Part shown: positions 6,645 to 50,908 of the stretch, piece by piece
How positions within the stretch are numbered: the first letter of the stretch is position 1
Layout: each line of letters opens with the position of its first letter
Notes under the pieces: model-generated
Told to the model about the DNA's origin: nothing
The model's input: only the letters and a program-made list of their open reading frames with translations
Database searches by the model: none
Position numbers and translations under genes: made by a program
From: Dehalococcoidia bacterium
GTDB taxonomy: Bacteria > Chloroflexota > Dehalococcoidia > UBA2979
Assembly (NCBI GenBank): GCA_965219085.1
Contig: OZ244720.1
Coordinates: 2,528,001-2,592,000, forward strand
Direction of reading: 5' to 3'
Length of the DNA: 64,000 nucleotides

Positions 6645-7461
6645 GTCAGCCTCCCAGGCTAGCGGCATCCGCGTGGAGACCGAGGTCGCGTCGGCGCCGG
6701 CGAGCAATGAGCAGGGCTCGTTGCCTCCGCCGCCAGCCGCGCGACCGGGTCGCCATGCCGTTCATGATTAGATATACGCGCCTGAGGCGGGGATGGTTTC
6801 CCTGACCCGCGGCCTCGCGAGTACCGATCGGCGGCATCGCCGTCGCACATCCGCTCACCGTGGGGGGTCCGGAGCGCAGGAGGGCGGCGAGTACGCGTCG
6901 CGCAGCTTGTCGAATCGGGCACTGACGCAGGCGCCGGCTCACCGGAGATCCGACGGGACCCACTGCGCTCCCCAGCACTCAATGTCACCCGACACCCACA
7001 CGCCGCAGGTGTGAACCGCACCGGTGCTCACCGAGCGGAACTTCCCCGGAGGCGCGTCTGCCTGGCCGAACCGGTTGTCTCCCCAGCAGACGACCTCGCC
7101 CGAATCGCGTACCGCACAGCTATGCCAAAGTAACGTGCTCACCGAGACGAATCTCCCGGGAGGCGCGTCCGTCAAGTTGGATGGCTCGGCGCCCCAACAG
7201 GCGAGCTCACCCGAATCCCGGACAGCACATGTGTGGGCCGCCCCCGCGCTGACGGAGAGGTACGTCCCCGGAGGTACGTGCGTTAGGCTGGATTCTCCCC
7301 AGCAGAGGATCCCACCCGACCCCGACTCGAGCACGGCGCACGAGTGCCGCTCCCCCGCGCTCACCGAGCGGTATTTCCACCTCCCCTGCGGCGCGTTCGC
7401 CTGGCCCCAATCGACCACCCTGATCAAGGAGGTAGACGTGCCCGACTCCTGTCGCGCGCCC

Positions 7462-8827
7462 GGTCACGTCCCTGCAAGTGGTGTAACAGTGCACCATCCT
7501 GATCATTTGCTAGCTGGCGGTCTGCAGTAGCACCTCCTCGCCTGAGGCGACCTCGGCCACGGCCGCCGGCAGCGGCTGCAGCATCGTCATGTAGCGCCGC
7601 CCCTCCGCCCACTCGTCGTGCTGCTCGGCGAGCACGGCGCCGACCAGCCGCACGACGGCGGCACGGTTGGGGAAGATGCCGACCACGTTGGTGCGCCGCC
7701 GGATCTCCTTGTTGAGGCGTTCCAGCGGGTTGTTCGACCAGACCTGCCGCCAGTAGACGACCGGGAAGGCCGTAAACGCCAGGATCTCCGGCCCGGCGTC
7801 GGCGAGCAGCGCCGCGGCCTCGGGGAAGCGCTCGGCGAGCTGCTCCACCACGCGGGCGTGTTGGGCCTGCACCTCGGCCGCCGAGGACTGCTCGTAGATC
7901 GTCCGCACCGTCGTCGCCACCAGCTTCTCGGCGCTCTTCGGCACCCGGGTCAGCAGGTTGCGCATGAAGTGCGTGCGGCAGCGCTGCCAGGAGGCGCCGG
8001 CGAAGACCGTCGCGATCGCCTCCCTGAGGCCCTGGTGCGCGTCCGAGGTGACGAGCTCGACGCCGGACAGGCCGCGCGCCACGAGCCCGCGCAGGAAGCT
8101 CAGCCAGAACGCCCCGTCCTCGGAGGTGCCGACGTCGATGCCCAGCAGCTCGCGCTTGCCGGAGGCGTTGACGGCGGTGGCGACGACCACGGCCACCTGC
8201 ACGACGCGGCCCTCCTCGCGCACGAGCTGGGTGAGCGCGTCGAGCCAGAGGTAGCGGTAGGGGCCCGAGTCGAGGGGCCGCTCGAGGAAGCTCGAGACGA
8301 CCTCGTCGAGTTCAGCGCAGATGCGCGAGACCTGGCTCTTGGAGATGCCGTCGCAGCCGAGCGAGCGCACGAGGTCGTCGACGCGACGGGTCGAGACGCC
8401 CTCGACGTAGGCCTGCGTGACCACGGAGACCAGGGCGCGCTCCGAGCGCCGCCGCGGCTCGATCAGCGAGGGGAAGTAGCTGCCCTCGCGCAGCTTCGGG
8501 ATGCCCAGTTCGATCGTGCCCACACGCGTGTCCCAGCGCCGCGGCCGGTAGCCGTTGCGCCGGGTCAGGCGCGTCTCGCTGCGCTCGCCGTGGGCGGCGC
8601 CGATCTGCGCCGAGACCTCGGCGTCCATCACCGCCTGGGCGAGCACCGCGACCGCCTCGCGCAGAAAGTCGAGGTCCGCTCCGTCCGCCTGCTTGCGCAG
8701 CAGTTCCAACAAGTCCACGCTCTCCTTGACCACAGTCGTCCTCCTCCACGTGACTGTTTCCTGTGTGAAGGATGGCGCGGTGGTCTCCTACGTCCACCTC
8801 TGTGACACCACTTCCTGGGACGCTACC
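7462..8827 (-). mobile_element. IS256-family insertion sequence
   Basis: Imperfect TIRs GGTCACGTCCCTGCAAGTGGTGTAACAG and reverse-complement GGTAGCGTCCCAGGAAGTGGTGTCACAG; no target duplication seen. Confidence 0.9.
7510..8733 (-). CDS. IS256-family transposase
   Basis: RNGYR, IPKLREGSYFPS, WLDA, SDAHQGL, WQRCRTHF, NPLERLNKEIRRRT motifs. Confidence 0.97.
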   Translation of the reverse strand: MVKESVDLLELLRKQADGADLDFLREAVAVLAQAVMDAEVSAQIGAAHGERSETRLTRRNGYRPRRWDTRVGTIELGIPKLREGSYFPSLIEPRRRSERALVSVVTQAYVEGVSTRRVDDLVRSLGCDGISKSQVSRICAELDEVVSSFLERPLDSGPYRYLWLDALTQLVREEGRVVQVAVVVATAVNASGKRELLGIDVGTSEDGAFWLSFLRGLVARGLSGVELVTSDAHQGLREAIATVFAGASWQRCRTHFMRNLLTRVPKSAEKLVATTVRTIYEQSSAAEVQAQHARVVEQLAERFPEAAALLADAGPEILAFTAFPVVYWRQVWSNNPLERLNKEIRRRTNVVGIFPNRAAVVRLVGAVLAEQHDEWAEGRRYMTMLQPLPAAVAEVASGEEVLLQTAS

Positions 8828-10012
8828 TGCTCGCGCGGGGCATTCAACAGGGAGCCGTAGTCAGACGCCCCCCAGCAGACCACCGAACCGGACTCATGGA
8901 TCGCGCATGTGAACTGTGAGCCCGCACTCACCGCGCTGTACCGTCCCGGCGGTGCCTGGGCCTCGCCGACGTCGTCTGCGCCCCAGCAGGCGATCTCGCC
9001 CGACTCGCGTACTGCGCACGCATGCGACTCGCCTGCGCCGACCGAGCGGAACGTCCCGCCGGGGGCGTCCAGCTCGCCCTTCCTGCGGCCTCCCCAGCAA
9101 ACCAGCTCCGCCGACTCGCGAATCGCGCACGTGAACCCATCGCCCGCGCTGACCAAGCGGTACTTACCGGGGGTGCGGTCGCCTCACCCCTGTCGTTCCT
9201 GCCCCAGCAGTCGATCTCGCCAGACTCCCGTATTGCACAGGTGTGGCTGTAGCCAGCACTCACGGACCGGTATGTGCGCACGAACGCACGATGCGCCTCA
9301 TTCGAAGTGTCCCCCCAGCAGGAAACTGAGCCCGCCTCGCGTACCGCGCACGTGTGAGTACCCCCCGCGCTCACCGAGCGGAACTTCCCCGAAGGCGCGC
9401 TGGTCAAGCCATAATTCTCATTCCCCCAGCAGCGAACGGCGCCCGATTCGTCGTGCACGGCGCAGGCATGACCACCCCCCGCGCTGACGGACCGGTAGCT
9501 ACCCAGGGGGGTGTCCGCTTCAAGCATGTACTCGTTGTCTCCCCAGCACCTGAGCTCACTCGACGCTCTGACAGCGCATGCGAATCCGCGCCCCGCACTG
9601 AGCTGCACCGCCGGGTCCGACGGCGGAGGGCCGGACGGGGTGGCGCGAGGTTCGCGAGTGGTAACCGGTGTGCCCGAGGGTGCCTGTACGGAAGTCTGGT
9701 CCTGCGGGCCCGCGCAGCCGGCGACAACAGCCGCTGCGACTACCAGTAGAGCCGCGCCCAACACCGCCGGCCACGTCGCCATGTCGCGGATGATAGATAT
9801 ACGCTCCGATCGCCGGGATGGTTTCCCCACCGAGAGCATCGATGGTGGGGATCGGCGATATTGCAGTCGGACAGCCGCCAGCCGGGGATGGGAGAGGCCG
9901 CAGGCCACCCCGATAACGCTCGCACGCCATCCCGGAGCGTCGCGCGGGACCATCGTGGAGCCGCGCGCAGTTGCGCTTGGGGTCCAGGCCGTATCCCGAA
10001 GTCGCTGGAGGC

Positions 10013-10067
10013 TGGCTGGCCAAGGAAGACTGTACTGCGAACTTTCGAGCTGGCGGTGTCACTGTAG
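10013..10067 (+). other. Hybrid att site (attL-like) carrying the orphan 3' tail of a serine recombinase gene
   Basis: 10013-10052 matches 36946-36985 at 37/40 nt and encodes GWPRKTVLRTFELAVSL*; only the right arm of the attP palindrome is present. Confidence 0.8.
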
Positions 10068-10117
10068 GTTCGGTGGGCCAGACTCTGCGGGGCCCGCTGC
10101 GCCCAGCCTGCGTTCGA

Positions 10118-10954
10118 CTACAGCATAAGTGTCGTGATCGCGCCGCCGGCACGGGTTCGCCGTACGCCGTTGATCATCTCTGACACCGCGACGGGGCAGA
10201 GCCTCGCCGGTCCTTGGCGTTGGGGCGGAGGTGGCACCGCGCGGACGTCGGCAGCGCAGCAGTCCTTGAAGCGGCGACCGCTCTCGCACGGGCAAGCCTC
10301 GCGTGGCCTCACCTTGAGTCGCTGCATCGCCCGCATCTCGTTCACGTACTCCCTCATGCCGGCCCGGCCGTGACTGTATTCTCCCCAGAGTTCGGCTCTC
10401 GCAGCCTGCAATCCGAATGCGTCGACGAACGACAAGCGATAGAAGAAGGGAATGACCAAGTCGTGAATGAACCGGTCGATTCGCAGGTGGGCGTCCAGAG
10501 CAAGCCTAATGCTCAGGCAGCACGTCTCGTCCTCGTAGAAATGCAGATCGGCGAGAGTAGCGCCTTCCTTGCGAGCGATTGCGGCGCGCCGCCCCCCGAT
10601 CTCCCTGACGCTCGGCCAAGGGGGGGAGTTGCCTGATTCGGGCTCAGGGTATTCGAAGGGGTTCAGGTCTGCGGCTGGCGGCCACTGTATCTGGAACGGA
10701 TCAGGGAAAGAGGGCGCTGGTGTTTGGGGCAGCAAGCGTATCTCGACATCAAACACGTCGGCGATGCAGATTCGGGACGATCCGTTTCCGTCCCCACCTC
10801 CCGACATGTCGCAGTCGACGATCAAGTCTCCGTCCGCCTTGTCGTAGCACGCTTGGAAATCCAGCGCCCCGACAATCGTCATGGAGCTAGCGTCGAAGGT
10901 GAGGTTGGGGTAGTGGTCGCGGAGCCAGGCGACGTCGGCCTTTGACATCTTCAT
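10118..10954 (-). CDS. Prokaryotic E2 (UBC)-like protein with C-terminal SEC-C motif
   Basis: WPSVREIGG..LHFYEDETCCL resembles the E2 flap-His/catalytic-Cys signature; VIPFFY, WGEYSHG; CPCESGRRFKDCC SEC-C. Confidence 0.7.
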   Translation of the reverse strand: MKMSKADVAWLRDHYPNLTFDASSMTIVGALDFQACYDKADGDLIVDCDMSGGGDGNGSSRICIADVFDVEIRLLPQTPAPSFPDPFQIQWPPAADLNPFEYPEPESGNSPPWPSVREIGGRRAAIARKEGATLADLHFYEDETCCLSIRLALDAHLRIDRFIHDLVIPFFYRLSFVDAFGLQAARAELWGEYSHGRAGMREYVNEMRAMQRLKVRPREACPCESGRRFKDCCAADVRAVPPPPQRQGPARLCPVAVSEMINGVRRTRAGGAITTLML

Positions 10955-12081
10955 CTAGCGTACGGCTTTCTCGGCTTGACCACCGTGGGCGCCGACACCT
11001 CAGTGCGGCTAGGTTCACCCCCCGTCCATAGCCTGACTCCGAGGCGATCAACGACTACTACGACCGGCTTTGGCGACTGGCGTGTGGGATGTTGCATCGT
11101 CACCACGAACTTGCCACGATGTTTAGCGCTGACCGCCCCATAATACGCCGCCGCCTGGCGGTGGGGTGGCTGGTCGGTGTCACTGTCCGGGATCGGGTCG
11201 CTCGTAGCGACGGCGATGCTGCGCGTTGCTCCCTGCTGCTCGAACAGCCAAGCCACCTCCGGAACAGGCTCGGTTACGCGCTTCCCCTTCTTGGGCCCGA
11301 GCGAGAGGTACGAGCAGTGGTGCGGGAGTTTGAACACGTCCCATTCGAGGCGGTGCTCGTTGCCGTGCATCCTCGTCACCGTCACGACGCGAGTCCAAAT
11401 CTCGTGGGGGACGTCGCTGCCGAGCATCAACCTCGAGTCGCGCCCGGCCTCGGTGAACGTGGACTGCAGCACGATGGACTCGGAGTTTCGGTCGACGAGC
11501 TTCCCGTCCTCGCGGTCTGCGAAGGGCGAGTGCGCGAAGAACTCGACGTGGTGCACATCCTTCTTGAAGCTGGGGACGAGCTGTCCAGCGTCGGTGATCA
11601 GGTGCGCGCGCGACTCGATCGTGAGCTTGTGCTCGTCGAGCCACTCCTTGAGCGCCTCCGGCCGGGAGAAGACCCGTACCCCCGCGCCCCGTTCCAAGCG
11701 ATAGCGCGCCTCGGCTTGGACAACGCGCCCCTCGTCACTCAGGGCACCCTTGCTCTCCGTGATAGCCGCGGCGGGCACCCACAGGTCCGAGATCTTTATC
11801 CGGCCGCGTCCCTGGTACTTCTGGGCGTGCTCGAGAACGAAGAAGTCCGATACGCCCTGGATGTGATCTTGATCCAAGTGCGTGAGGGCCAGCACGTCCA
11901 CATGGTCGCGGCCCAGCTCGTCCAGCCGCTTGCGGATCGCCCGAGGGAGATCGATTCGGCGATCGTTCGGATCGTCTGCGTCGGCCATGGCCGCGTAGTC
12001 GAACAGCAGAACCGCCCCTGCGGACGTCTCAACGAGGCACGTGTCGGCGTTGCCCAGCGGGAAGAATGTGAGCTTGTGCAT
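10951..12081 (-). CDS. MBL-fold metallo-hydrolase (ComEC/Rec2-like, type linked to prokaryotic ubiquitin-like operons)
   Basis: FFPLGNADT, THLDQDH, LGSD, KLPHHCS; stop overlaps start of the E2-like gene. Confidence 0.85.
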   Translation of the reverse strand: MHKLTFFPLGNADTCLVETSAGAVLLFDYAAMADADDPNDRRIDLPRAIRKRLDELGRDHVDVLALTHLDQDHIQGVSDFFVLEHAQKYQGRGRIKISDLWVPAAAITESKGALSDEGRVVQAEARYRLERGAGVRVFSRPEALKEWLDEHKLTIESRAHLITDAGQLVPSFKKDVHHVEFFAHSPFADREDGKLVDRNSESIVLQSTFTEAGRDSRLMLGSDVPHEIWTRVVTVTRMHGNEHRLEWDVFKLPHHCSYLSLGPKKGKRVTEPVPEVAWLFEQQGATRSIAVATSDPIPDSDTDQPPHRQAAAYYGAVSAKHRGKFVVTMQHPTRQSPKPVVVVVDRLGVRLWTGGEPSRTEVSAPTVVKPRKPYAR

Positions 12082-12171
12082 GAGGGGATCTCCTCTGGTC
12101 CCGGCTGGCCATGGGTCGCCGTCGAGGCACCCATGAGCCATGCTTTAGGTGAACATGTACAAGACCACGCG

Positions 12172-12190
12172 TTACAGCGGTAGACTGTAA
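12172..12190. promoter_or_regulatory. Putative operator in divergent promoter region
   Basis: TTACAG-N7-CTGTAA inverted repeat in the AT-richer gap between the MBL gene and higB-like gene. Confidence 0.45.
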
Positions 12191-12234
12191 ATCCTGAACG
12201 CTAGTAGTATCAGCTATGAGGGTGAGAGACGCAA

Positions 12235-12525
12235 GTGGACATTCGCTTCGCCGACGAGAATCTCGCGCGGTGTTTCCGGGAGGAGATGCACGCCACCGCG
12301 TGCTGGGGGCTGGATGTGGCGCAGCAGTACGTCCACGTGGTGAACTTCCTCACCTGCATCGAAGGGGCGGGGGACGTGAGCAAGTTCGCGTTCCTGCGGG
12401 CCGAGACCCGGAATCACTCCGGGCCGACGCGCTGGATCGTTCCGCTGGCTGATGGCTGGCATGTTGCTCTCGACGTCGCAGAGGGTGGGCGGGCCCTTAT
12501 CGTTGCAGAGGTGGTGACACAGTGA
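12235..12525 (+). CDS. HigB/RelE-like toxin (divergent)
   Basis: MDIRFAD..L start, 96 aa, GTGA overlap with downstream HigA-type gene. Confidence 0.7.
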   Translation: MDIRFADENLARCFREEMHATACWGLDVAQQYVHVVNFLTCIEGAGDVSKFAFLRAETRNHSGPTRWIVPLADGWHVALDVAEGGRALIVAEVVTQ

Positions 12526-13619
12526 CCGATTCCACGGAAGCAAGCTCGATCGGCCGAGCCATCGCGCCAGGAACCTACTTGCGCGAGGAACTAGCCGAGC
12601 GCCATATGAGCCAGACCGAGCTCGCACGCCGGATGGGACGGCCCATTCAGGCAATAAACGCGGTCGTGAACGGCAAGAAGGCGCTCACCGAGGTGACGGC
12701 TCTCGAGTTGGAACGAGTCTTGGGCACGCCGGCGCAGGTCTGGGTGAATCTCGAGGCACGGTACCGGCTGGCGCTCGCCCGCGCCTTTGAGGATTCGTCG
12801 CTACGGGACGAGTTGGATTGGTTGAACTACTTTCCGTTGGGCCAGATGGAGCGCCGCGGCTGGATTCCGGCTGCTACGCAGCCACTAGATCGATTGCGGG
12901 CCCTCTTGGAGTTCTTCGGCGTCGCGTCCTTCTCGAATTGGGACGCTGAGCAGCAAGAGGCTCTAGGTTTCCGTGTTACCGGGAACGCGGCAATCGATAC
13001 AGGGGCACTTGCGGCTTGGGTACGCAGAGGTGAAGCGAACGGCATCGCTCTCGAGACGGAAGACTACGACGAAGCGCGCTTCCGCGAGGCGATCGCCGAA
13101 GCACGTGCCCTCACGATGCGCCCGCCGCGTGAGGCTTGGACAGAGCTGAAGGAGATGTGCGCACGAGCGGGCGTAGCAGCGGTAGTTGTGCGTGAGTTCC
13201 CCAAGATCGGTGCCAATGGCGTCGCTCGGTGGATCAACCCACGGAAGGCCCTGATTCAACTGAACCTTCGTTACCGGTGGGCGGACATCTTCTGGTTTAC
13301 GTTCTTCCATGAAGCGGCCCACGTGCTGATGCACGAACCCCGGCGCGTCTTCGTCGAACTGGAGGGCAACCCTCGGAGAAGTCCGCGGGAGGAGGAGGCG
13401 AATCGCCTCGCGGAGGAGTTCCTGATCCCGGTGGACGATTGGGAAGAGTTCGTGCTCCGGTCGAGGTTCGATGCTCTGAGCATCAGGGCCGTCGCCTCGG
13501 ACCTTGGTATCGATCCAGGGATCGTGGTGGGCCGCCTTCAGCACAGGGGCTTGGTTCCATGGGGCTCGAAGCTCAATTCGCTTCGGAGCCGCCTGGAGTG
13601 GGCCGAGGCGGATGCCTGA
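12522..13619 (+). CDS. higA: HigA-type HTH antitoxin fused to IrrE/ImmA metallopeptidase
   Basis: PGTYLREEL..MSQTELARRMG HTH; FWFTFFHEAAH and EEEAN motifs. Confidence 0.9.
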   Translation: MTDSTEASSIGRAIAPGTYLREELAERHMSQTELARRMGRPIQAINAVVNGKKALTEVTALELERVLGTPAQVWVNLEARYRLALARAFEDSSLRDELDWLNYFPLGQMERRGWIPAATQPLDRLRALLEFFGVASFSNWDAEQQEALGFRVTGNAAIDTGALAAWVRRGEANGIALETEDYDEARFREAIAEARALTMRPPREAWTELKEMCARAGVAAVVVREFPKIGANGVARWINPRKALIQLNLRYRWADIFWFTFFHEAAHVLMHEPRRVFVELEGNPRRSPREEEANRLAEEFLIPVDDWEEFVLRSRFDALSIRAVASDLGIDPGIVVGRLQHRGLVPWGSKLNSLRSRLEWAEADA

Positions 13620-13738
13620 TCTTTTGAAGCTCGGAACGCGAGTTCGGCGATCTTCATGTGACCAGACACCTGCGCCGAGCCCTTTGCTGTTCCGATAACG
13701 GCTGGAGGGCTCCCGTTCGCTGCTGGTCACCGAGGGTG

Positions 13739-14215
13739 TCAGGATTCATCTCCATCGCCGAAGAGGGCTGCGACTCTTCGGTCAAGCCAGGCGAGCACTC
13801 GCGTCAAGCTGAAGCCTGCGGCAAACGCAATTGCAACGAAGGGCAAGGCTGATTGCTCGTCCATCGGGCCCGGAACCCGCACAGGACTCAGTGCTACGCG
13901 TGCGGCTACGTACCCGATTAGCCCCAAGACGCTGCCTGCGATCGGGCGGAGCACGTACCACCATGTCCATGAGGGATCATATGTGAATCGTGGGCTGTCG
14001 GCCCGCTGTGGTCCTACGGACCAATAGAAGCCTCGAAGGGCGTACAACGTGGCGCCAAGCCCACCAGCCGCCGCGCAGTGGAACCAGACGCTCACCGCTG
14101 TTTCGAGGGGGGCTTGTGCTGGCCACCACCCGAGGGCGACAGCTCCCGCTATGTAGAGGTAGCCGGCGATCGCGACGGTAAACCAAGCGCCTGTCGCCAC
14201 CTTCAGCCAGAACAT
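13739..14215 (-). CDS. Four-TM membrane protein of unknown function
   Basis: Four hydrophobic segments, GGLGA, WYVLRPIAG, AFAAGFS. Confidence 0.7.
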   Translation of the reverse strand: MFWLKVATGAWFTVAIAGYLYIAGAVALGWWPAQAPLETAVSVWFHCAAAGGLGATLYALRGFYWSVGPQRADSPRFTYDPSWTWWYVLRPIAGSVLGLIGYVAARVALSPVRVPGPMDEQSALPFVAIAFAAGFSLTRVLAWLDRRVAALFGDGDES

Positions 14216-15078
14216 CGGGACCCCTCAAAGGCTCGTGTGTAAGGACTCAACTGGCGAGGTCGACTCTAGCGTCTCACGCACTCGGCTCGCCTGCCGATCC
14301 CGCGACTGCGTCGTACACCTCGCGGGCGGGCACCTCCGAGGCTGTCATCCGGAGTCCGCGTCGCCGAGGAACCGCGTGACGATGGCGTCATTCTCCCCTA
14401 TTGCCTGCCGACTGGTGGGGCCGTGTCCTTGTCGGCGTCGCCCGCGCCGACCTCGGTCGTGGTGGTGACGAAGGCTGACCCCTCCTCGTCAGCTTTGAGC
14501 CACCAGACTGGACAGAATCGAGAACCTCCATCCTGACATTCCGGCTGGCGATGTAGCCTGCTGTAGGCATCGTCCACCCATTGGAGCCCGACACCGACTA
14601 GCAACGGCACAAGCTCAGGCGGTCGGACGTCTGCCGTTCGTTCATGCCTAGCGGCTGTTACATGCGTTCGAGCTCGTCGAGGATGTCCTGAATCACGTCC
14701 GCCGCCTCGAGCGCTTCTCGTACTTGGGCTTGTGCCAGTGCGGCCCAGAATGTGGCTGCCCACTGCTCGTAGAGATGCTCGAAGTCGTAGATGCCGTCGA
14801 CGTGGACGGACTCGATGGTGGTGCCGAACGAGTCCGTCACGCTCACAGCGATCGCAGGCCCGCCTCGAGCGCCGGGCCCCAGGACGAGCGCCACGAGAGC
14901 GTCTCGAAACTCGGCGAACAGAGGTGACTTTGGGTAGCTCGGGTAGCCGCCCGGACCAGGATCCTCCACCGTCTCCGACGCCTCACCAGGATTCGCTCAC
15001 TGACCTGACCCCTTGAAACGGGACCACCGTTGATGAGAGTCCTTTGGCCCATGAAAGTGGGCAGAGGAGGACATCACG

Positions 15079-15357
15079 GTGAAACGACGCAGGCACACGC
15101 CCGAGCAGATCGTGCGGAAGCTGCGGGAGGTGGAGCGGCTGCTCGGTGAGGGGCAGACGATCGCCGAGGCGGCGAAGCAGGTCGAGATCTCGGAGCAGAC
15201 CTACCACCGCTGGCGCAACCAGTACGGCGGGATGAAGGCCGACGACGCCAAACGGCTGCGCGAGCTGGAGCGCGAGAACGCCCGGCTGAAGCGGATCGTC
15301 GCCGACAAGGAACTCGAGATCGACGCGCTCAAGGAGATCGCCCGGGGAAACTGGTAA
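15079..15357 (+). CDS. IS3 transposase OrfA
   Basis: HTH (ISEQTYHRWRNQYGG) plus leucine zipper; ends at GGGGAAAC frameshift motif. Confidence 0.95.
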   Translation: MKRRRHTPEQIVRKLREVERLLGEGQTIAEAAKQVEISEQTYHRWRNQYGGMKADDAKRLRELERENARLKRIVADKELEIDALKEIARGNW

Positions 15358-15386
15358 GCCCGTCGCGCCGGCGCGAGGCAGTCTGC

Positions 15387-16211
15387 ATGTTGCAGGACCG
15401 CCTCGAGTTGTCGGAACGGCGGGCATGCCGGGTCACCGGCCAGCACCGCTCCACACAGCGCCGCCTCCCGACGCGCGGCCGCGGCGACGACGCGCTGCGC
15501 GCGGAACTCCACGCCTTCTCGCGTGGCCACCCCCGCTGGGGCTACCGCCGGGCCTGGGCGACCTTACGCGAGGAGGGATGGGGCGTGAATCGCAAGCGGG
15601 TGCAACGGCTCTGGCGTGAAGAAGGGCTGCGCGTCCCGGTGAAATGGCGCAAGCGTCAGCGCCTGGGGGACTCGGCGGTGCCCGCCGCCAGGCTGCGCGC
15701 TGAGCGGCCGAACCACGTCTGGGCGCTGGACTTCCAGTTCGACCAGACCGCGGACGGGCGGGTCCTGAAGCTGCTCAACATCGTCGACGAGCACACACGG
15801 GAGGCGCTGGCGATCGTGGCCGCCAGGAGCATCAACGCCGACGCCACGGCCTCAACGCTCGACGGGATCGTCGCCCGGCGCGGGACGGCGCCTGGGTACA
15901 TCCGTTGCGACAATGGGCCCGAGCTCACGGCCAACGCGCTGCGCGACTGGTGCCGGTTCAGCGGTACGGGCAGCAGCTACATCGAGCCCGGTGCGCCGTG
16001 GGAGAACCCGTACGTGGAGTCGTTCAACGGCCGGCTGCGCGACGAGTTCCTGCCGGTCGAGCAGTTCGACAGCCTGCTCGAGGCGCAGGTGCTGCTCGAG
16101 GACTGGCGGATCGAGTACAACACGAAGCGCCCGCATAGCAGCCTGGGCTGGCTCGCCCCGGCTGCCTACGCCGAGCGCTGGGAGACTCAGCTACACGCTG
16201 GACTCTCATAA
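15387..16211 (+). CDS. IS3 transposase OrfB (DDE), probably fused to OrfA by -1 frameshift
   Basis: WALDF, DNGPE, PWENPYVESFNGRLRDE, YNTKRPHSSLG. Confidence 0.95.
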   Translation: MLQDRLELSERRACRVTGQHRSTQRRLPTRGRGDDALRAELHAFSRGHPRWGYRRAWATLREEGWGVNRKRVQRLWREEGLRVPVKWRKRQRLGDSAVPAARLRAERPNHVWALDFQFDQTADGRVLKLLNIVDEHTREALAIVAARSINADATASTLDGIVARRGTAPGYIRCDNGPELTANALRDWCRFSGTGSSYIEPGAPWENPYVESFNGRLRDEFLPVEQFDSLLEAQVLLEDWRIEYNTKRPHSSLGWLAPAAYAERWETQLHAGLS

Positions 16212-17717: not shown

Positions 17718-19832
17718 CTACCGTGCTGTCGCTGCGCGGCGCGCTCGCAAATCATCGAGAAACTCCGACCCCGGAGCCACCCCCGTGACCAGGAGGTGGT
17801 CGCGCGCGCGGGTGCAGGCGACGTAGAGGAGATGGCGCTCGGTGTTGTAGACGTCCTCGAGGTCGGCGGTGTCGGCGACAGCCTCGATGCGGGACTGGAG
17901 CGGGATGACCTCGTCGTCGCAGGCGGCTACCACGACGGCGCGGAACTCGAGGCCCTTGGCGAGGTGCATCGTGCCGACGGCGGCGTGGCCCAGCTCGGCC
18001 TCGGCGCCGCCCTCGAGTCCGCCGGCGGTGAGGCCGGACGCTTCGATCGCAGCGCGGGCGCGCTCCAGCTCTGTCTCTGACCGCACGAAGACACCGATCT
18101 CCTCCAGCGGCACGCCCTCCCCCGCCCGCGCCTCGATCCATTCGGCGATGGTCACGGCTTCCTCCTCGACCGTGTCGAGGACAGCGACGGTCGGCTCGGG
18201 GCCGTTGAAGGCAGAGACTGTGCCGCGGCGGATATCTGTGTTGCCGTCCACGTCGCTCATCTCGGGCGGGAGCAGACGGTCAGCCTGGCGGCGGATCTGG
18301 TGCGAGGTGCGGTAGTTGATGCGGAGCGTGCTCGACCGGCCGCGCACGTCGACGCCGAGCGAGAGCCACGAGAACGGCGTCTGGAAGATGCGCTGCCCGA
18401 GGTCGCCAGCGAAGAAGAGGCCGTTCTCGCGCTCGCCCCGCAGGGCCGCGAGGAAGCGGAGTTGCGGGACGCCGATGTCCTGGCTCTCGTCCACGACGAT
18501 GAAGTCGTAGGGACTCGCGCCGGCCCCAGCCGCGCGCTCGGTCGCCGCGGCGAACACGCTGGCGAGGGTGCGGAGGTCGCGCTCGGCGAGTTCGGAGCGG
18601 ACGCGCTCGAAGATCGACCAAAGCAGGACGCGCTGGTTCTCGCCGAGGCGCGTCTTGCGGCCGAGGCGGGCGACGTCGCGATACGCCTCCCACGTCGCGA
18701 GCTGCCAGGCATCGACCACTTCGCGCCACTCGGCCTCGAGGAACCGCTCGCTGAAGCGATGCTCCTCGGCAGCCGCCGACGCCTCATGGAGCAGCGTCCG
18801 CAGCGTCGGTTCGTCCACCAGCCGTGCCGGGCCGAACGCCGCTTCGAATAGCTCGACGCCGACCTGGTCGATGGCGTTCACGGTGATGCGCTCGCGAGCG
18901 GCGTCGCCCCCCACGAGTCGGCCAAGCTTCACGCGGAGTGCGGCCGCGAGCGTGTCGCTGAAGGTGGTGAGCAGCACGCGGGCTTCGGGATGCGTGCGCG
19001 CGAGGTGTACCGCGCGATGAAGCGCGACGACGGTCTTGCCCGTGCCGGCGGACCCGGCGACGCGCGCCGGCCCACTGTAGTCCCGCTCGACGATGGCGCG
19101 CTGGGCCGGGTGAAGGAACACCGTCCACTGCTCCCAGGGGTAGTCGAGGGCGCGCTCCAACTCGGCGGCGTTGTCCATCAGCCGGAACCGGCGCTGCGCG
19201 TCGGGGTGCTCGAAGGGGTCCGCGCCCGCGTCCGCGTGCACCGGCTGCGCCGGAGTGCCGCCGGTGGCCAGTTCCAGCAGCGCCTCCGCGGCCTCGGCCG
19301 GTAGGTGGTCAGCAAGCTCGAAGAGTGTGTCCTCGGTTGCGGCGCGGGCGTCGGCGAGCCATTCGAGCGGCACCCCGTAGCCGAGCAGCGCATCGTCCGT
19401 TACGTGATCGAAGAGGCGCGGCCTGGACCCGAACGTCGCCGGAGCGGGCTCCGCGACGGACTGCTCCGCCGGGACGTAGACCGGGACCTCAACCTCGCGG
19501 ACGGTCTCGCGCACCTCGACGAGTTGGGCGGCGCCGGTGCGTGGGTGGCGCTCGAGAACTCGTCGCTCAGCCCAGCGGTAAGCGGCGTCGTGGTGGTCGG
19601 CGTAGCAGAGCATCAAGCTCGCGTCGGTGCGATGCACGATCAGGCGCAGGTCGCGGCTGATACGTGCGGACCAGAAGCTCTTGTCCTTGCTGCGGTCGAT
19701 GCGATGGAGTTGGATGCCGGGGTTCGCCGGGTTGAGCTGCAGGTCGAAGGCCGTGGTCTTCGCCGCCTTCTGCTCGTCCGCGGTCAATCGGTCGAGGCTG
19801 GCCGTGAACGTGTCGGCTATCCGGAACTCCAT
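17718..19832 (-). CDS. UvrD/SF1 helicase with N-terminal RelE-like domain
   Basis: GSAGTGKT, VDESQD, GDLGQRIF, NYRT, AKGLEF, LYVACTRAR; N-terminal WSARISRDLRLI. Confidence 0.92.
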   Translation of the reverse strand: MEFRIADTFTASLDRLTADEQKAAKTTAFDLQLNPANPGIQLHRIDRSKDKSFWSARISRDLRLIVHRTDASLMLCYADHHDAAYRWAERRVLERHPRTGAAQLVEVRETVREVEVPVYVPAEQSVAEPAPATFGSRPRLFDHVTDDALLGYGVPLEWLADARAATEDTLFELADHLPAEAAEALLELATGGTPAQPVHADAGADPFEHPDAQRRFRLMDNAAELERALDYPWEQWTVFLHPAQRAIVERDYSGPARVAGSAGTGKTVVALHRAVHLARTHPEARVLLTTFSDTLAAALRVKLGRLVGGDAARERITVNAIDQVGVELFEAAFGPARLVDEPTLRTLLHEASAAAEEHRFSERFLEAEWREVVDAWQLATWEAYRDVARLGRKTRLGENQRVLLWSIFERVRSELAERDLRTLASVFAAATERAAGAGASPYDFIVVDESQDIGVPQLRFLAALRGERENGLFFAGDLGQRIFQTPFSWLSLGVDVRGRSSTLRINYRTSHQIRRQADRLLPPEMSDVDGNTDIRRGTVSAFNGPEPTVAVLDTVEEEAVTIAEWIEARAGEGVPLEEIGVFVRSETELERARAAIEASGLTAGGLEGGAEAELGHAAVGTMHLAKGLEFRAVVVAACDDEVIPLQSRIEAVADTADLEDVYNTERHLLYVACTRARDHLLVTGVAPGSEFLDDLRARRAATAR

Positions 19833-19835
19833 CAG
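19772..19835 (-). repeat. Direct repeat copy 1 (5' end of helicase gene)
   Basis: 58/64 nt identical to 20526-20589. Confidence 0.85.
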
Positions 19836-19967
19836 CAGCCTCTGCGGACGTAGTTCACTGAACCAGACAGCGAATCGATGGACTCGGTTGGACGAGTGCC
19901 CCGGACATACACGCAGCGGTAGCCCGGCCAAGCCTGCTTGAGGGCATCAGCGCCATCAATTCGTACG

Positions 19968-20525: not shown

Positions 20526-20589
20526 GCTCGTCCGCAGTCAGCCGGGCGAGGCTGGCCGTGAACGTGTCGGCGATGCGGAACTCCATCAG
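20526..20589 (-). repeat. Direct repeat copy 2 (truncated helicase start MEFRIADTFTASLARLTADE)
   Basis: Its ATG overlaps the mod stop codon; 58/64 nt identical to 19772-19835. Confidence 0.85.
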
Positions 20590-23453
20590 TCGACTCGGAA
20601 CACCTTCATCACTTCGTCGCCGAGGTGGTTGATGACCTTCACCGCGATGCGGCCCGACTCCGGCTTGTCGAAGGGGCGCGACGTGTCGCTGTGCAGCGTC
20701 TCCCACGCCTCCTGGTTGATCTCGGCCTTGAGCGTGGTCTTGAGCGCCTTGTACGGGTCGTTCTGGCCGAGGAAGTAGGCGTGACGGACGAAGAAGCTCT
20801 CCTGGTTGTAGTCGGTGTCGATGAACCAGCAGGCGATGCCGTCCGGGCCATCGCTGCGCACCTCGCCCGTGTTCGGGTGGAACACGTCGACGCCATTCAC
20901 GCGCAGCTTGACCTGCCCGGGCTCGGCATCGTCGTCGCCCGACGCGTCGAGGATGTCGATGTCCGGCTCGCCGAAGATGACGAAGAGGTTGCCCTTGCCG
21001 GTGTTCTTCAGATCGCCGGCCATGTGCAGGTCGGCGTTCATCCGCGCCTTGAGGACCGGGACACGTCCGAGCTTGTTGAACTCGGTGGCGTGCGCCTCGT
21101 AGTTGAAGGCGCAGGCGATAAGCACGTCGAAGCCTGCGTCGGCGGCCTCGCGGGCGGCCTCGACGAGGTCGGGGCGCGAGACGGTGCCGAACTCCGGCCC
21201 GATGAAGATGCCGGCGCGCTTCTCGGGGCCCGTGCCGTTGGACCCGGAGCCGCCATCGGCGTAGCGGCCCTCGGCGCAGATCATCTCGCCCGGCCACGGG
21301 GAGACCGAGGAGAACTCGATGCGGTCTTCCTTGTGCGCCTGCTGCACGCCGGCGGTGCTGAGGTGAGCGAGGATCGTGGAACCGAAGTCCTGTGGCTCGC
21401 CGTACGAGCCCGGCGTCTCTGCCACGCCGTCGATGAGCTCATCGTCCTCGTCGAGGCCGAGGACGCGGTGGGGTGAGAGGCTCTCGACCGTGAACGGCCC
21501 GGCCACGCGCACCTTGCGGTTGTCGGTGTACGGCTTGTCGTAGAGATACTCGAAGTCCGCCTTTGCGGCGATGGAGGCGTCGATCTCGCGCTGGCGCGCA
21601 ATGCGCTGCTGCCACCACTGCTCGTGCAGCGCCCGCGCATCGGCCGGCCACCCGTCCTCAGCCTCACGCGGGATCTCCCACTCTTCCCACGACTCGTCGA
21701 GCACTGCATTCAACTCGTCCCGGAGGGGCTCGAGTTTCGTCTGGAACTGCTCCCAGATGACGTCGAGCTCAGCGTTGCTGGCAATGTCGCGAAGCTGGAT
21801 GTGGGGAACGCGTTCATAAACGAAGCCTTGACGAACGTTGTCGAACGATGGAGCGTCGGACGGCTGCCCGCGTGTGATCTCTGCCTCTTTCTGTTTTCCG
21901 TCGGTGCCATCTGTTAGCAAGTAGTAGGGATATCGGGCACCCATGATGCGTACTCGCGCAAGAGCGAGTGCCACACGAGAAGTGTCGACGGTGATCCAGC
22001 GGCGCCCCCACTGCTCTGCGACGTATGCGGTGGTCCCGCTGCCACAGGTAGGATCGAGAACCAGGTCGCCCGGGTCGGTGGTCATGAGTAGACATCGCTG
22101 GACGACCTTCGCAGAGGTCTCGACTACATACCGCTTCTCCGAGGCGAACCCCGCAATCCCCGTATCGCTCCAGACGTTATCTTCATTGAACGCCCTAAAA
22201 TCATCGAAGTAACGAACGTAGTAGAGGCCGGAACGGGTCGCGCTCAGGCGATCTGCCTTCTTGAGCCTCGCCATCCCGGTGGCATTGGTCTTCCATCGGA
22301 CGCGATCCGATGGCTTATAGGTCTTCCCGCGGAAGGCGACCGGGAACCATGACGCGGCCCCTTCGCCCTTCGCCCGACCGACACTCTGGCTTGTGAGGTT
22401 GTCCACCCGAAACACAAGCGCATGTTCGGGCAGCCCGGAGGGATCCGTGAGTTCCGCACGCGTGAGGGGGCGATCAGTGCCATCCGGGAAGCGAGCACGC
22501 TTGTAGGCCGTACCGCCGACGCCCCCCACTTCTTTCGCTTGGAGCGGCTGGCGATACTTCAGGCGCTCACGGTCCTTTGCATAGAAGAGCAGGACATCAT
22601 ATGTGCCTGCCAAGAATTCGGAAGTTGCGCTGGCAGTCTTCGAGAAGACTATCTGCGATACGAAGTTGTGCGAACCGAACACCTCATCCAAGAGAGCCCG
22701 AAGAAGGTGGGAGTTCTCTTCCCCGATCTGCACGAACAGCGAACCTGAATCGTGGAGGAGGTCGCGAGCGATCTCAAGGCGATCGCGCAAGTACGACAGG
22801 TACGAGTGGATGCCGTCGCGCCACGTGTCGCGAAACGCTTTCACCTGTTCCGGCTCGCGCGTGATGTGTTCCGTGTTGCCGTCACGCACGTCGCGGCTCG
22901 CCGTCGACCACTGGAAGTTCGAGTTGAACTTGATGCCGTACGGCGGGTCGATGTAGATGCACTGCACCTTACCGCGCAGACCCTCGCGCTCCGCCAGCGA
23001 GGCCATCACCTGCAGGCTGTCGCCGAGAATCATGCGGTTCGACCAGTTGGCGTCGTGCTCGTAGAAGTCCGTGCGGTCGGCGCCCTCCGGCAGCCCGTTG
23101 AAGTCGGCGAACAGGTCCGCTTGGTACCCGTTCTCGGCGATCGCATCGTCCTTCGCCGCCTGCTCACTCCTCCGCCGCAGGTCGTCGATGAGTACCTTGG
23201 GGTGCACCTTCTCCTGGATGTAGAGCGGCGGCGCCTGCACGACGAGGTCGGCGAGGTCCTGCTCGTCCTTGCCGCGCCAGACGAGCTGCGGGTCGAGGTC
23301 GCGGTTGCGGCGCTCGTATGCCACCTCGATGGGGCTGCGGTCGTCGTCCTCCAGCGCCGCGCTGTACTCGGCGGTGGGGATGTTGGTCCGCTTCGCGTCG
23401 TCGTGGACGATCGTCTCGACCTGCTTGCGGCGGCTCTTCTTCCGACGTGGCAT
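20586..23453 (-). CDS. mod: Type III R-M methyltransferase subunit
   Basis: YIDPPY before DPTCGSGTT (beta order); C-terminal IAVKVINHLGDE. Confidence 0.93.
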   Translation of the reverse strand: MPRRKKSRRKQVETIVHDDAKRTNIPTAEYSAALEDDDRSPIEVAYERRNRDLDPQLVWRGKDEQDLADLVVQAPPLYIQEKVHPKVLIDDLRRRSEQAAKDDAIAENGYQADLFADFNGLPEGADRTDFYEHDANWSNRMILGDSLQVMASLAEREGLRGKVQCIYIDPPYGIKFNSNFQWSTASRDVRDGNTEHITREPEQVKAFRDTWRDGIHSYLSYLRDRLEIARDLLHDSGSLFVQIGEENSHLLRALLDEVFGSHNFVSQIVFSKTASATSEFLAGTYDVLLFYAKDRERLKYRQPLQAKEVGGVGGTAYKRARFPDGTDRPLTRAELTDPSGLPEHALVFRVDNLTSQSVGRAKGEGAASWFPVAFRGKTYKPSDRVRWKTNATGMARLKKADRLSATRSGLYYVRYFDDFRAFNEDNVWSDTGIAGFASEKRYVVETSAKVVQRCLLMTTDPGDLVLDPTCGSGTTAYVAEQWGRRWITVDTSRVALALARVRIMGARYPYYLLTDGTDGKQKEAEITRGQPSDAPSFDNVRQGFVYERVPHIQLRDIASNAELDVIWEQFQTKLEPLRDELNAVLDESWEEWEIPREAEDGWPADARALHEQWWQQRIARQREIDASIAAKADFEYLYDKPYTDNRKVRVAGPFTVESLSPHRVLGLDEDDELIDGVAETPGSYGEPQDFGSTILAHLSTAGVQQAHKEDRIEFSSVSPWPGEMICAEGRYADGGSGSNGTGPEKRAGIFIGPEFGTVSRPDLVEAAREAADAGFDVLIACAFNYEAHATEFNKLGRVPVLKARMNADLHMAGDLKNTGKGNLFVIFGEPDIDILDASGDDDAEPGQVKLRVNGVDVFHPNTGEVRSDGPDGIACWFIDTDYNQESFFVRHAYFLGQNDPYKALKTTLKAEINQEAWETLHSDTSRPFDKPESGRIAVKVINHLGDEVMKVFRVD

Positions 23454-27100: not shown

Positions 27101-27214
27101 CCTCTGCTCGGCGATCTGGTTCGTCGGCTGGCGCTCGTCGTCGAGCTCCCAGTGCCGCGCCGGGTACTCGTACGGCGAGTTGAGGACTGGCGATTCGAAG
27201 AAGCGGTCGGTCAT
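24146..27214 (-). CDS. res: Type III R-M restriction endonuclease/helicase subunit
   Basis: ATGAGKT, NDEAHH, LSATP, MLTEGWD, EQVIGRALRR, YIPDF..VEIKG. Confidence 0.93.
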   Translation of the reverse strand: MTDRFFESPVLNSPYEYPARHWELDDERQPTNQIAEQRRPAAYITPVPQPRRQRGRAQQQRMILDEGEGLSTEDQEYDPTSTINVLRREVDRWRSSPESDWNVTPETARLLKHWRRHDFSDIRPFFCQVEAVETVIWLTEVAPQSRRREVIEIRERLEWANEQSNPDLARLGLKLATGAGKTTVMAMLIAWQTVNAVRHPSSRNFTRGFLVVTPGITIRDRLRVLQPNDPDSYYESRELVPRDMLRDLEQARIVITNYHAFKLRETLDLSRGGRSLLQGRGPEIQSIETEGQMLQRVMPGLMGMRSIMAFNDEAHHCYREKPGETDEGKLTGDDRKEAEKNREAARLWISGLEAVNRKLRLRRVLDLSATPFFLRGSGYAEGTLFPWTMSDFSLIDAIECGIVKLPRVPVADNIPGGDMPMFRELWEHIRRKMPRKGRGRAGELDPLSIPVELQTALEALYGHYAEVFKLWDDADTEAPPCFIVVCNNTATSKLVYDYISGFHRENEDGSTTLENGRLELFRNYDEHGNPYPRPYTLLIDSQQLESGEGLDRNFRQAAAEEIERFRREQVQRTGDRAAADKISEQDLLREVMNTVGKPGQLGGSIRCVVSVSMLTEGWDTNTVTHVLGVRAFGTQLLCEQVIGRALRRQSYDLNEDGRFDVEYADVLGIPFDFTAKPVVAKPTPPRETVQVRAVSPERDDLEIRFPRVQGYRVELPSERLEAEFTDDSTFELTPEVIGPSITRNEGIIGEGVDLNLVHTGDMRPSTLQFHLARRLVETKWRDPGGEPKLHLFGQLKRITRQWLEQHLVCTGGTYPAQLMYQSLADTACERITQGINRALLGERPIKAVLDPYNASGSTRHVRFTTSKRTRWRTDPRRSHVNYVVCDSDWEAEFCRIAERHPRVRAYVKNQGLGLEVPYQWGSEARRYIPDFIVLVDDGRGEDDLLHLVVEIKGYRREDAKEKKSTMESYWVPGVNHLGAYGRWAFAEFTDVWAMQHELAAEIDAHFDKMIESAAGTAPVVAG

Positions 27215-27420
27215 GGATCGCAGTCTATCAGCGGCTGCGAGTACTCGGCGTCTTGCCGCCGCCAGACGCCTCTCCATGAGCAGCATCGGGCCGGCGGTGC
27301 GGGCGTTTCTCACGGAGTTCGGAGTCCCGTCGGATCGCTTTGGCGCGACTCCGAAAGATGCTCAGCAGCAGGAGCCGCCTGAGTCGCAAGGCAACCAGTG
27401 AGCCATCCTCGCGGGCTCGG

Positions 27421-50649: not shown

Positions 50650-50870
50650 GAGGCCCGCTCCTCTGTGAGGTAGTCGTCGACCTCCTTCGCGCTCTTGAAG
50701 AGGCGTTGCCCCGGGCCCTCCGAGATGATCTGCCAGGCGGAACGAGACGAGGGTTCCTGCGCGGGCGAAATCACCACGTCCACGTGTTCCCCGGCCTGAA
50801 GGTCTCGGTCCACGATCTCGATCTTCCCTCCGGGCTGTACGGTTGCCTTCTTGTGCAGCACCCTCTGCAT
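50637..50870 (-). CDS. Antitoxin partner of VapC
   Basis: 77 aa, swapped-hairpin-like N-terminus, VDDYLTEERASW end, overlaps vapC start. Confidence 0.75.
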   Translation of the reverse strand: MQRVLHKKATVQPGGKIEIVDRDLQAGEHVDVVISPAQEPSSRSAWQIISEGPGQRLFKSAKEVDDYLTEERASWER

Positions 50871-50908
50871 TCCTCATCCTTCCTAGCTTGGCGGCTTTCC
50901 CAGTGCGG

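Follow-up and report, generated by a model that had tools for sequence, protein, structure and literature searches.

The DNA examined here, a window of 64,000 nucleotides from contig OZ244720.1 of a Dehalococcoidia bacterium, contains two overlapping genes on the minus strand. They encode a metallo-beta-lactamase (MBL)-fold hydrolase and, directly downstream, an E2-like protein with a SEC-C motif (Table 1). The pair is probably a hybrid of two known bacterial systems, 6A-MBL and the E2-only form of CBASS (antiphage signalling that is based on cyclic oligonucleotides). The stop codon of the MBL gene and the start codon of the E2 gene share 4 nt (the matched string ATGA), confirming the overlap described in an earlier reading made from the letters alone (the sequence-only reading). 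The MBL open reading frame (ORF) as called runs from 10951 to 12141, and its start was placed at an internal Met ('MH..TFFPLGNAD') because the homologues all start there, giving the gene of 376 aa at 10951..12081 that the sequence-only reading had delimited.

The MBL-fold enzyme and the E2/SEC-C protein

The MBL-fold protein matched NCBIfam model NF058524 ('anti-phage 6A-MBL system MBL-fold protein', '6A-MBL_enzyme') with 386.9 bits, the cut-off being 220, over model positions 1-345/346, and a search of its own genome returned the same single locus. In an alignment of 28 MBL sequences, the HxDxDH motif (H68, D70, D72 and H73), H184, H254, H255 and further His and Asp residues were invariant, so the metal ligands picked out in the sequence-only reading are intact. 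The structural model has an MBL fold with a mean predicted local distance difference test score (pLDDT) of 85. Residues 356-376 score below 50, and the tail is therefore predicted to be flexible or disordered, as the earlier reading had supposed. The best solved fold match was the MBL (beta-lactamase-like) domain of ComEC (9ic4, E 4e-13), followed by the pneumococcal phosphorylcholine esterase Pce (1wra), and the cAMP-bound structure 7e3w and Apyc1 (7u2s) were also among the matches. The enzyme is probably a nuclease or phosphodiesterase effector.

The operon type '6a' of Iyer et al. 2006 (Table 1, row 6a) has a triple-module E2-E1-JAB protein almost always beside a specialised metallo-beta-lactamase, and canonical 6A-MBL loci are mostly described as two-gene (PMC1779556). 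These 'MBL pathways' have been grouped with type II CBASS and Pycsar as systems in which a fused E2-E1 conjugates their enzyme (PMC11601596), and a further source cites 6A-MBL among the anti-phage systems of P. aeruginosa confirmed by experiment (PMC13276650).

In a survey of metagenome contigs, an MBL relative was encoded in 414 of 596 pattern matches, and the best 80 loci were kept, with 66 complete MBL genes. A protein of about 750 aa directly followed the MBL in 58 of these 66; the other eight had a contig end or no neighbour. Four of the 58 were scanned, and all four contained Prok-E2_A, ThiF and Prok-JAB, in agreement with the earlier statement that similar MBL proteins occur with E2-E1-JAB genes. 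HTH and M78 genes were frequently found upstream of, and divergent from, the MBL in these canonical loci. The MBL has more than 3,299 homologues. Relatives were also found in 276 plasmid records, all at less than 60% identity; in pGOX1 the MBL gene is followed by genes for a 741-aa MPN-family protein and a patatin. At one metagenome locus (L122, positions 7148-11309), and likewise in L106, L117 and L119, a 1165-aa E2-E1-JAB-patatin fusion is followed by a TIR-domain protein, and the MBL tails of these four loci read ..QRVGFG.. plus an extension.

The partner in the window is of another type. Seven PADLOC CBASS 'E2' or 'E1-E2' models matched it, from 3.8e-18 (PDLC00872, the best) to 6e-4, as did Pfam SEC-C (1.5e-5), and there was no Pfam match to Prok-E2_A. 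Across 30 family members, the motifs DLHFY..CCL and LWGEYSHG (residues 189-196) and the SEC-C cysteines (C221, C223, C232 and C233) were invariant, bearing out the E2-like HFY...CCL motif, the WGEYSHG motif and the SEC-C finger of the sequence-only reading. H138, C145 and C146 were also invariant and are the candidate catalytic residues, while K230, within the SEC-C motif, was kept in at least 90% of members.

The E2 model has a mean pLDDT of 78, with residues 78-110 and 271-278 low. VIA-align was run over the 477 top chains from Foldseek, with an aligned range of model residues 2-204. The comparison with ubiquitin-conjugating (UBC) folds that the sequence-only reading had proposed placed the model closest to two chains of the Serratia marcescens CdnG-E2 complex, 8hsb_B (Z 8.8, root-mean-square deviation 3.3, 127 aligned) and 8yjy_B (Z 8.7). 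UFC1, UbcH7, Ubc13 and UEV chains came next (Z 5.3-7.0). Z was 5 or more in 62 of the 475 aligned chains, and the rows shown were almost all E2, UFC1 or UEV. On this model, the protein is predicted to have a UBC/E2 fold with an alpha/beta core. A Pro-rich insert of about 30 residues (E2 residues 78-110, window 10352-10723) is confined to E2 proteins of the MBL-linked clade and is missing from the members linked to CD-NTases (cGAS/DncV-like nucleotidyltransferases).

Relatives of the E2 numbered 239 at E<=0.001 among 1,960 candidates scored. The 120 listed were 204-327 aa long, most with SEC-C, and 57 E2/SEC-C loci were found in GTDB representative genomes. Nearly all source metagenome-assembled genomes (MAGs) belonged to Poribacteria, Latescibacterota, Dehalococcoidia, Caldilineaceae, Entotheonella, Binatia or Acidimicrobiales. 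The family is concentrated in Poribacteria, Latescibacterota, Dehalococcoidia/SAR202, Caldilineaceae, Entotheonella and Spongiisociaceae, which we take to be mainly sponge-symbiont lineages. Some genomes have two E2/SEC-C copies close together (L018, L036, L037 and L048/L049). BLAST clustering gave a recurrent layout of a gene of about 320 aa, a gene of about 320-400 aa and then the E2 gene.

Representatives from 6 of the 57 loci were scanned, and in all six the gene directly upstream of E2 encoded a CD-NTase. Two PADLOC cyclase types occupied this position, one of about 315 aa (PDLC00793) and one of about 400 aa (PDLC00770). A patatin effector preceded the CD-NTase in four of the six, a SAVED-endonuclease followed the E2 in L011, and HTH/M78 regulators were found near the scanned loci. 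An E1-like match was present in 2 of the 57 loci (L030 and L038), on the opposite strand. These family loci are E2-only (type II short) CBASS, and the E2 in the window is a member of this stand-alone family and no truncated 6A fusion.

A further 26 E2 relatives were longer (508-619 aa, P0241-P0266), all with CD-NTase Pfam domains, and ThiF and JAB were found in none of the 26. These single-chain CD-NTase-E2/SEC-C fusions should self-process. Elsewhere the family was scarce: none of 81 pattern matches in viral contigs was confirmed, no E2/SEC-C was found among 72,556 plasmids, and 3 of 400 other genomes in a same-phylum sample carried it. In a tree of E2 proteins (43 rows, after dropping loci that had no clean E2 ORF or whose upstream ORF was shorter than 290 aa), the MBL-linked clade of seven rows was monophyletic (100/100) on a long stem (1.02). 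Under midpoint rooting this clade nests among the cyclase-linked E2s, joined at a weak node (82/64); on such a root and node, any direction given to the exchange of the E2 is tentative.

Like the sequence-only reading, the analysis found no E1, JAB or CD-NTase gene near the pair; a ubiquitin-like gene, which that reading had not seen either, was not the object of a specific search. A hidden Markov model built from 43 E2-E1-JAB fusions gave no match in a six-frame translation of the window, and the ThiF and Prok-JAB matches in the genome lie about 1 Mb from the pair. No SMODS CD-NTase was found in the 3.3-Mb genome, which is 92.7% complete. A search of the genome for Prok-E2_A was also negative, and is weak since the same search was silent in every control genome.

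The C-terminal tail and the predicted complex

A characterised stand-alone E2 is that of the Serratia CdnG-E2 system. It cuts off E407 behind G406 of the cyclase, forms a thioester on C101 aided by H87 with no E1 needed, and hands the cyclase on, through an isopeptide bond, to K159 or to further copies of the cyclase; maltose-binding protein fused behind the cyclase tail was also cleaved (10.1101/2022.05.25.493364; PMC12948482). Most of the complex is stored in the E2-linked form (10.1101/2022.05.25.493364). The sequence-only reading had stated that short CBASS variants conjugate through an E2 alone, and this E1-independent action is indeed published (10.1101/2022.05.25.493364).

The MBL in the window ends in ...VVKPRKPYAR. 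In the alignment of 28 MBL sequences, the 24 outside the window's clade have a motif of the APRAG type at the C-terminus (in most of them APRAG itself), whose Gly is the last residue or is followed by a few more, while the four window-clade sequences (83-100% identical) end in KPYAR or KPYGR. R[AV]G was present in all 66 complete metagenome MBLs, terminal in 35 and 1-9 residues before the end in 31, and an end of the KPYAR type in none. R-[AV]-G at or near the MBL C-terminus is a feature observed in this analysis and not one taken from the literature.

The ends of the genes adjoining E2/SEC-C on its upstream side were compared for 51 of the 57 loci. KPYAR was the end in 28 of the 51, of which 23 were exactly PRKPYAR, and 42 fitted the pattern P[YFWH][AGS][RKQW]$; the nine exceptions were near variants (e.g. 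KSYAR, RQWAR, KPFGG and PKPYLP). One of these upstream genes is the MBL of L006, and the others cluster with CD-NTases. Since the MBL in the window has the tail of the E2 family's CD-NTase partners, it is the type of E2, and not the enzyme family, that the tail follows. In the most divergent E2/SEC-C members, from Acidimicrobiales MAGs (L058 and L059), the adjoining CD-NTase tails read ..PPKPYLSSW and ..PPKPYLP, retaining the KPY core with Leu for the small residue and a longer extension.

KPYAR followed by a stop codon occurs once in the genome that contains the window, at the MBL gene, with no control matches. RKPYAR followed by a stop likewise occurs once in each of five other genomes, at coordinates corresponding to the E2-adjacent gene. 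A very degenerate form of the tail pattern (with TGG also allowed for stop), searched in 176 genomes of one phylum, gave matches at the level of the reversed-pattern control, a result that was set aside as uninformative.

The single-chain fusions show where conservation ends. All 26 keep P-x-[KR]-[PQ]-[YWH]-[ASV] where the cyclase part meets the E2 part, and the next residue is T in 18, D in three, G in three and Q in two, before a short linker; in the separate proteins the residue after the small one is R, K, Q or W. Conservation thus stops at the small residue and the next position is free, which fits cleavage after the small residue. From these sequences, the scissile bond in the MBL is predicted to be A375-R376.

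The sequence-only reading had suggested modelling the complex to see whether the MBL tail sits at the Cys. The MBL-E2 prediction scored 0.69 (runs of 0.69, 0.69 and 0.67), and the best of three controls scored 0.00. A score of this level was obtained with 58 of 80 solved complexes and with 2 of 110 mismatched pairs, counts that are only rough as own alignments were used. The runs had at least 82% of contacts in common, partner pLDDT of at least 72 and 121-128 confident contacts. On the MBL side the interface takes in residues 362-376 (the whole tail) and 343-355 of the body, and on the E2 side residues 42-48, 138-141, 146-149, 164-173, 188-196 and 223-226. The E2 contributes a beta-strand pairing with MBL T366-P370, the region around His and Cys, the loop of the WGEYSH motif and the SEC-C motif. 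The tail is thus placed in the E2 groove near 138-141 and 146-149, and the prediction supports tail-in-groove binding without showing it. We consider it quite probable that the E2 recognises the MBL tail.

The conserved cassette and the surrounding element

The MBL and E2 genes are part of a larger block. The segment 10185-14269 aligns to positions 4679-8767 of L006, a locus from a Gammaproteobacteria-labelled MAG, with 82% nucleotide identity over 4.1 kb and five genes. The flanks differ, and the G+C content of the block is below that of its surroundings. The dN/dS values (NG86) between the window and L006 were lowest for the membrane protein (0.09), followed by the HTH-M78 protein (0.14), the MBL (0.20), orf96 (0.28) and the E2 (0.33); with values of 0.09-0.33, the five genes are under purifying selection. 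Amino acid identity to L006 was 91% for orf96, 82% for the HTH-M78 protein and 89% for the 158-aa protein.

Whether the pairing is conserved had been named in the sequence-only reading as a test of its proposal. The pairing does recur, in L006 and under purifying selection, but the clade is narrow, as an MBL was paired with E2/SEC-C in 1 of the 57 E2 loci (L006), in none of the 66 metagenome MBL genes and in none of the 276 plasmid MBL records. In the nearest canonical locus (L063) the regulator is 62% and the MBL 63% identical in amino acid sequence, and the downstream gene is of the E2-E1-JAB type. The simplest history would start from a 6A-MBL operon that gave up its conjugation module, together with the last ~25 residues of its MBL, and received those of an E2-only CBASS in their place.

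Divergent from the pair lie orf96 and the regulator gene. The regulator matched HTH_3 (2.2e-9) and Peptidase_M78 (1.9e-8) as well as the PADLOC models PD-Lambda-2_B (3.4e-34) and capP (1.3e-6). CapH/CapP regulators are encoded divergently from CBASS and other defence operons (10.1101/2022.04.27.489752). By analogy, the HTH-M78 protein is a candidate CapH/CapP-like transcriptional regulator, and the divergent intergenic region is presumed from the CapH/CapP arrangement to hold a shared promoter and operator. Searches of Pfam, PADLOC and NCBIfam at E<=1 assigned neither orf96 nor the 158-aa membrane protein to a family, and the same three databases gave no patatin or SAVED match among the genes in 12235..14969. 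For the 158-aa membrane protein, tblastn (E<=1e-4) found no homologue in L063 or the other loci searched.

The pair comes first after the left copy of a 33-bp direct repeat, in keeping with the earlier description of it as the first cargo after attL, and the repeats bound about 27 kb of DNA (Table 1). At 10-15 kb the G+C content is 0.62-0.65, down from about 0.69. Between the repeats, the type III-like methylase and the ResIII/endonuclease protein form a type III restriction-modification pair, and the whole resembles an integrative and possibly conjugative element with a load of defence genes.

Table 1. Position of the MBL-E2 pair, the accompanying genes and the features of the surrounding element in the window
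Feature	Position	Strand	Remarks
Candidate attL, left copy of 33-bp direct repeat	10013..10045	.	32/33 identical to right copy, E 7.6e-11
E2-like ORF with SEC-C	10118..10954	-	278 aa
MBL-fold metallo-hydrolase, 6A-MBL family	10951..12081	-	376 aa; upstream start 12141 unlikely
Codons of MBL residues 362-376 (VSAPTVVKPRKPYAR)	10954..10998	-	disordered tail with PxKP(Y/W)A-x tag
Divergent intergenic region, 153 bp	12082..12234	.	between the MBL-E2 and orf96/HTH-M78 operons
orf96, 96 aa, no family match	12235..12525	+	4-nt overlap with start of regulator gene
HTH_3 + Peptidase_M78 fusion, 365 aa, candidate regulator	12522..13619	+	divergent from MBL-E2 operon
158-aa hydrophobic protein, no family match	13739..14215	-	within conserved 4.1-kb cassette
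IS3-type transposase	15079..16211		
UvrD-like helicase	17718..19931		
Type III-like methylase	20586..23453		
ResIII/endonuclease protein	24146..27313		
TrwB-like coupling protein	28799..30223		
Replic_Relax protein	30557..31987		
UDG-family protein	31984..32667		
Large serine recombinase	35568..36731		
Candidate attR, right copy of 33-bp direct repeat	36946..36978	.	just past large serine recombinase gene

Outside the repeats, an RCC1-repeat gene to the left of the island (6939-9953) has apparently been split by an insertion of the IS256 family (Transposase_mut, 7510..8733), and the ORFs flanking the insertion (6939..7427 and 8928..9953) both contain RCC1_2 repeats. To the right, a 636-aa protein is encoded on the minus strand (40521-42431). 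It combines a DisA-type diadenylate cyclase domain with the sensor domains DACNG and DACNH, and its gene may have a nucleotide-signalling role in defence or as a checkpoint. What looks like a second defence island is formed by a row of large genes on the minus strand (45540-61331). It includes genes for a 1516-aa protein with a weak sacsin-like match, a 987-aa protein without a family, a PIN-domain protein (50206..50877), an NOV_C protein (55033..55998) and an SNF2-related helicase (55995..57974), and two further large ORFs without a family.

Interpretation and comparison with known systems

We put the probability at about 0.6 that the locus is a hybrid defence-type operon in which the E2 drives E1-free covalent conjugation of the MBL, taken as a whole statement. 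On this hypothesis, a 6A-MBL backbone (the MBL and the divergent HTH-M78 gene) would have had its E2-E1-JAB partner replaced by a stand-alone E2/SEC-C protein of E2-only CBASS, and its ...APRAG tail replaced by the ...PRKPYAR tag of the E2 family's CD-NTase partners. The disordered MBL tail would bind in the E2 groove. The His/Cys pair of the E2, acting as a cysteine protease, would remove R376, and an MBL-Ala375~Cys thioester would form on C145 or C146, with H138 as base and without ATP or E1. The MBL would then be passed to a lysine on the E2 itself, on another MBL or on a target, K230 being one candidate. Conjugation would prime or restrain the MBL, as a nuclease or phosphodiesterase, during phage infection, and the HTH-M78 protein would control transcription. 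The mechanism is drawn by analogy with Serratia CdnG-E2, and what it says of covalent bonds, of the way regulation runs, of what the MBL acts on and of phage defence is inferred.

The proposal of the sequence-only reading, that the MBL takes the place of the cyclase as the conjugated protein and that the E2 processes and ligates its tail, is supported by the E2 family, the fusions and, most strongly, the shared tail. That reading had also named three outcomes that would speak against it, namely no UBC fold, an unconserved pairing or a deletion remnant of a larger locus, and none of these was found.

Several points weigh against the hybrid interpretation. The evidence for it is comparative and not biochemical, for the pair as for every E2/SEC-C member. 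The pairing was seen directly in the window and L006 only, the other close relatives being P0001-P0005, P0122, P0123 and P0125. For the fold, Foldseek alone gave no match to the E2 model at E<=0.001 (best E 0.17), the top Z of 8.8 barely exceeds the background of 7-8 that VIA-align states for best matches, and an E2 profile searched against PDB sequences found only SEC-C peptides (SecA and YchJ) and did not match the Serratia E2. The E2-fold assignment stands because nearly all rows are E2 folds, with the E1-free E2 ranking first. The spacing from His to Cys (138 to 145/146) is unlike that in Serratia (87 to 101), and the candidate catalytic residues were assigned by sequence. The predicted acyl donor is Ala (Gly in some relatives), whereas published work on E2-CBASS stresses a conserved Gly. 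A similar complex, CdnG-E2, is among the solved structures, and the score of the predicted one may owe a part to this likeness. On function, the anti-phage role of 6A-MBL is taken from papers citing van den Berg 2024, and the patatin and TIR domains in some canonical loci indicate that the MBL may not always be the sole or final effector.

Of the alternatives, the one that survives best is non-covalent control, in which the E2/SEC-C protein would be a stoichiometric inhibitor or chaperone, antitoxin-like, with no cleavage, thioester or transfer. A large predicted interface of 121-128 contacts that includes the MBL body (343-355), translational coupling of the genes through the 4-nt overlap and the mostly E2-linked storage of the Serratia complex would all suit such a role. 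We nevertheless regard it as unlikely, given that H138, C145 and C146 are invariant in the 30 members and that in the tails a small residue is conserved and the leaving residue behind it varies; the internal motif in 26 of 26 fusions is hard to explain without cleavage.

A second alternative makes the MBL a cyclase analogue that produces or degrades a signal, with the effector elsewhere, for example in the 158-aa membrane protein. The MBL does sit in the cyclase's position directly upstream of the E2, and the fold matches 7e3w and Apyc1 are a reminder that MBL folds include nucleotide phosphodiesterases. Canonical loci sometimes add a patatin or TIR protein (as in L122, and the patatin in pGOX1), and the membrane protein belongs to the conserved cassette and has its lowest dN/dS (0.09). 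Set against this, canonical loci are mostly two-gene (PMC1779556), and the best fold matches of the MBL are a ComEC nuclease-type domain and a phosphodiesterase. The membrane protein is also transcribed separately, convergent to the regulator, and lacks homologues in L063 and the other loci searched, which leaves this alternative distinctly unlikely.

A deletion remnant of an E2-E1-JAB fusion was considered and rejected, the E2 being of another family without Prok-E2_A and the tail co-adapted to the E2. Decay in general, whether of a 6A-MBL operon that lost E1-JAB or of a CBASS locus that lost cyclase and effector on a mobile element, would sit well with a mobile island that has IS256-type (7510..8733) and IS3-type (15079..16211) insertions nearby and with a rare pairing absent from plasmids, where E2/SEC-C was not found although 276 records carry the MBL, but is very improbable given intact ORFs with all invariant residues, a cassette that recurs in L006 with dN/dS of 0.09-0.33 for five genes, an E2 that is not of the fusion's Prok-E2_A type and an MBL that acquired a tail matching its new E2, which decay would not lead one to expect.

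Beyond the single operon, the tag-and-E2 module looks transferable between unrelated enzymes. More tentatively, and with chances that we judge a little short of even, P-x-K-P-(Y/W)-A-any could be a portable ligation tag and E2/SEC-C an ATP-independent, sortase-like ligase that cleaves after Ala, a residue other than glycine, and attaches any tagged enzyme. If true, the tag has moved onto at least three unrelated or distant scaffolds, namely two CD-NTase types and an MBL hydrolase, substrate and ligase have also been fused into self-processing single chains, and E1-free 'ubiquitin-like' conjugation would be an activation module used generally in bacterial immunity rather than something peculiar to CBASS.

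For the E2-E1 form, the idea of an MBL as the conjugated protein has been published before (PMC11601596). An MBL enzyme that a stand-alone E2 serves was not described in any source found by the literature searches, whose scope did not extend to supplementary tables. The papers found to name 6A-MBL do not set out its gene content, 'MBL' was absent from PMC12948482 and the Ledvina preprint, and in PMC10557695 none of nine passages inspected had MBL as a word. The locus offers a natural tail-swap experiment, in which the C-terminal tag has changed together with the E2 type, and with it a testable prediction on how E1-free E2 enzymes choose their substrates. It also suggests an Ala-specific variant of the E2 chemistry and provides a compact two-gene system for finding out what conjugation does to an MBL effector.

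Comparison with known systems places the locus between established types. With the 6A-MBL system it shares a full-length MBL well above the model cut-off (386.9 against 220 bits) and a divergent HTH/M78 regulator, as in many canonical loci. The partner differs, being a 278-aa stand-alone E2/SEC-C protein of another family where 6A-MBL has E2(Prok-E2_A)-E1-JAB, so that the pair has neither an adenylating enzyme nor a JAB peptidase, and the MBL tail is KPRKPYAR where the canonical tail is APRAG. Without an E2-E1-JAB partner and with a tail of the wrong type, the locus falls outside canonical 6A-MBL. The regulator resembles CapH/CapP in its domains, an HTH repressor and an M78 metallopeptidase, and in being encoded divergently, but in the window both domains are in one 365-aa protein, encoded after a 96-aa ORF, and the best PADLOC match is PD-Lambda-2_B. 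Type II CBASS with Cap2/Cap3 (an E1-E2 fusion and a JAB protein) likewise conjugates a non-ubiquitin enzyme through its C-terminal tail, but there the Cap2 E1 domain carries out ATP-dependent adenylation and Cap3 reverses the conjugation, and the window has neither.

The closest likeness is to E2-CBASS, as in the CdnG-E2 system of Serratia marcescens. In both, a stand-alone E2 lies directly downstream of the substrate gene, often with a 4-nt overlap, and neither has an E1 or a JAB. The E2 in the window has a conserved Cys and His, the substrate tail consists of a small penultimate residue and a leaving residue, the Serratia E2 is the closest solved fold, and CapH/CapP-like regulators are present. 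The systems differ in that the substrate is an MBL hydrolase in the window and a CD-NTase in E2-CBASS, in that the window operon has no gene for a cyclic-nucleotide effector, in that its E2 subfamily has a SEC-C zinc motif and no sequence match to the Serratia E2, and in the predicted acyl donor, Ala where Serratia has Gly. With no cyclase and no nucleotide-responsive effector, the locus falls outside CBASS as well. Both parent systems, 6A-MBL and E2-only CBASS, are known; the combination in the window is built from one part of each and, by analogy, probably works like E2-CBASS.

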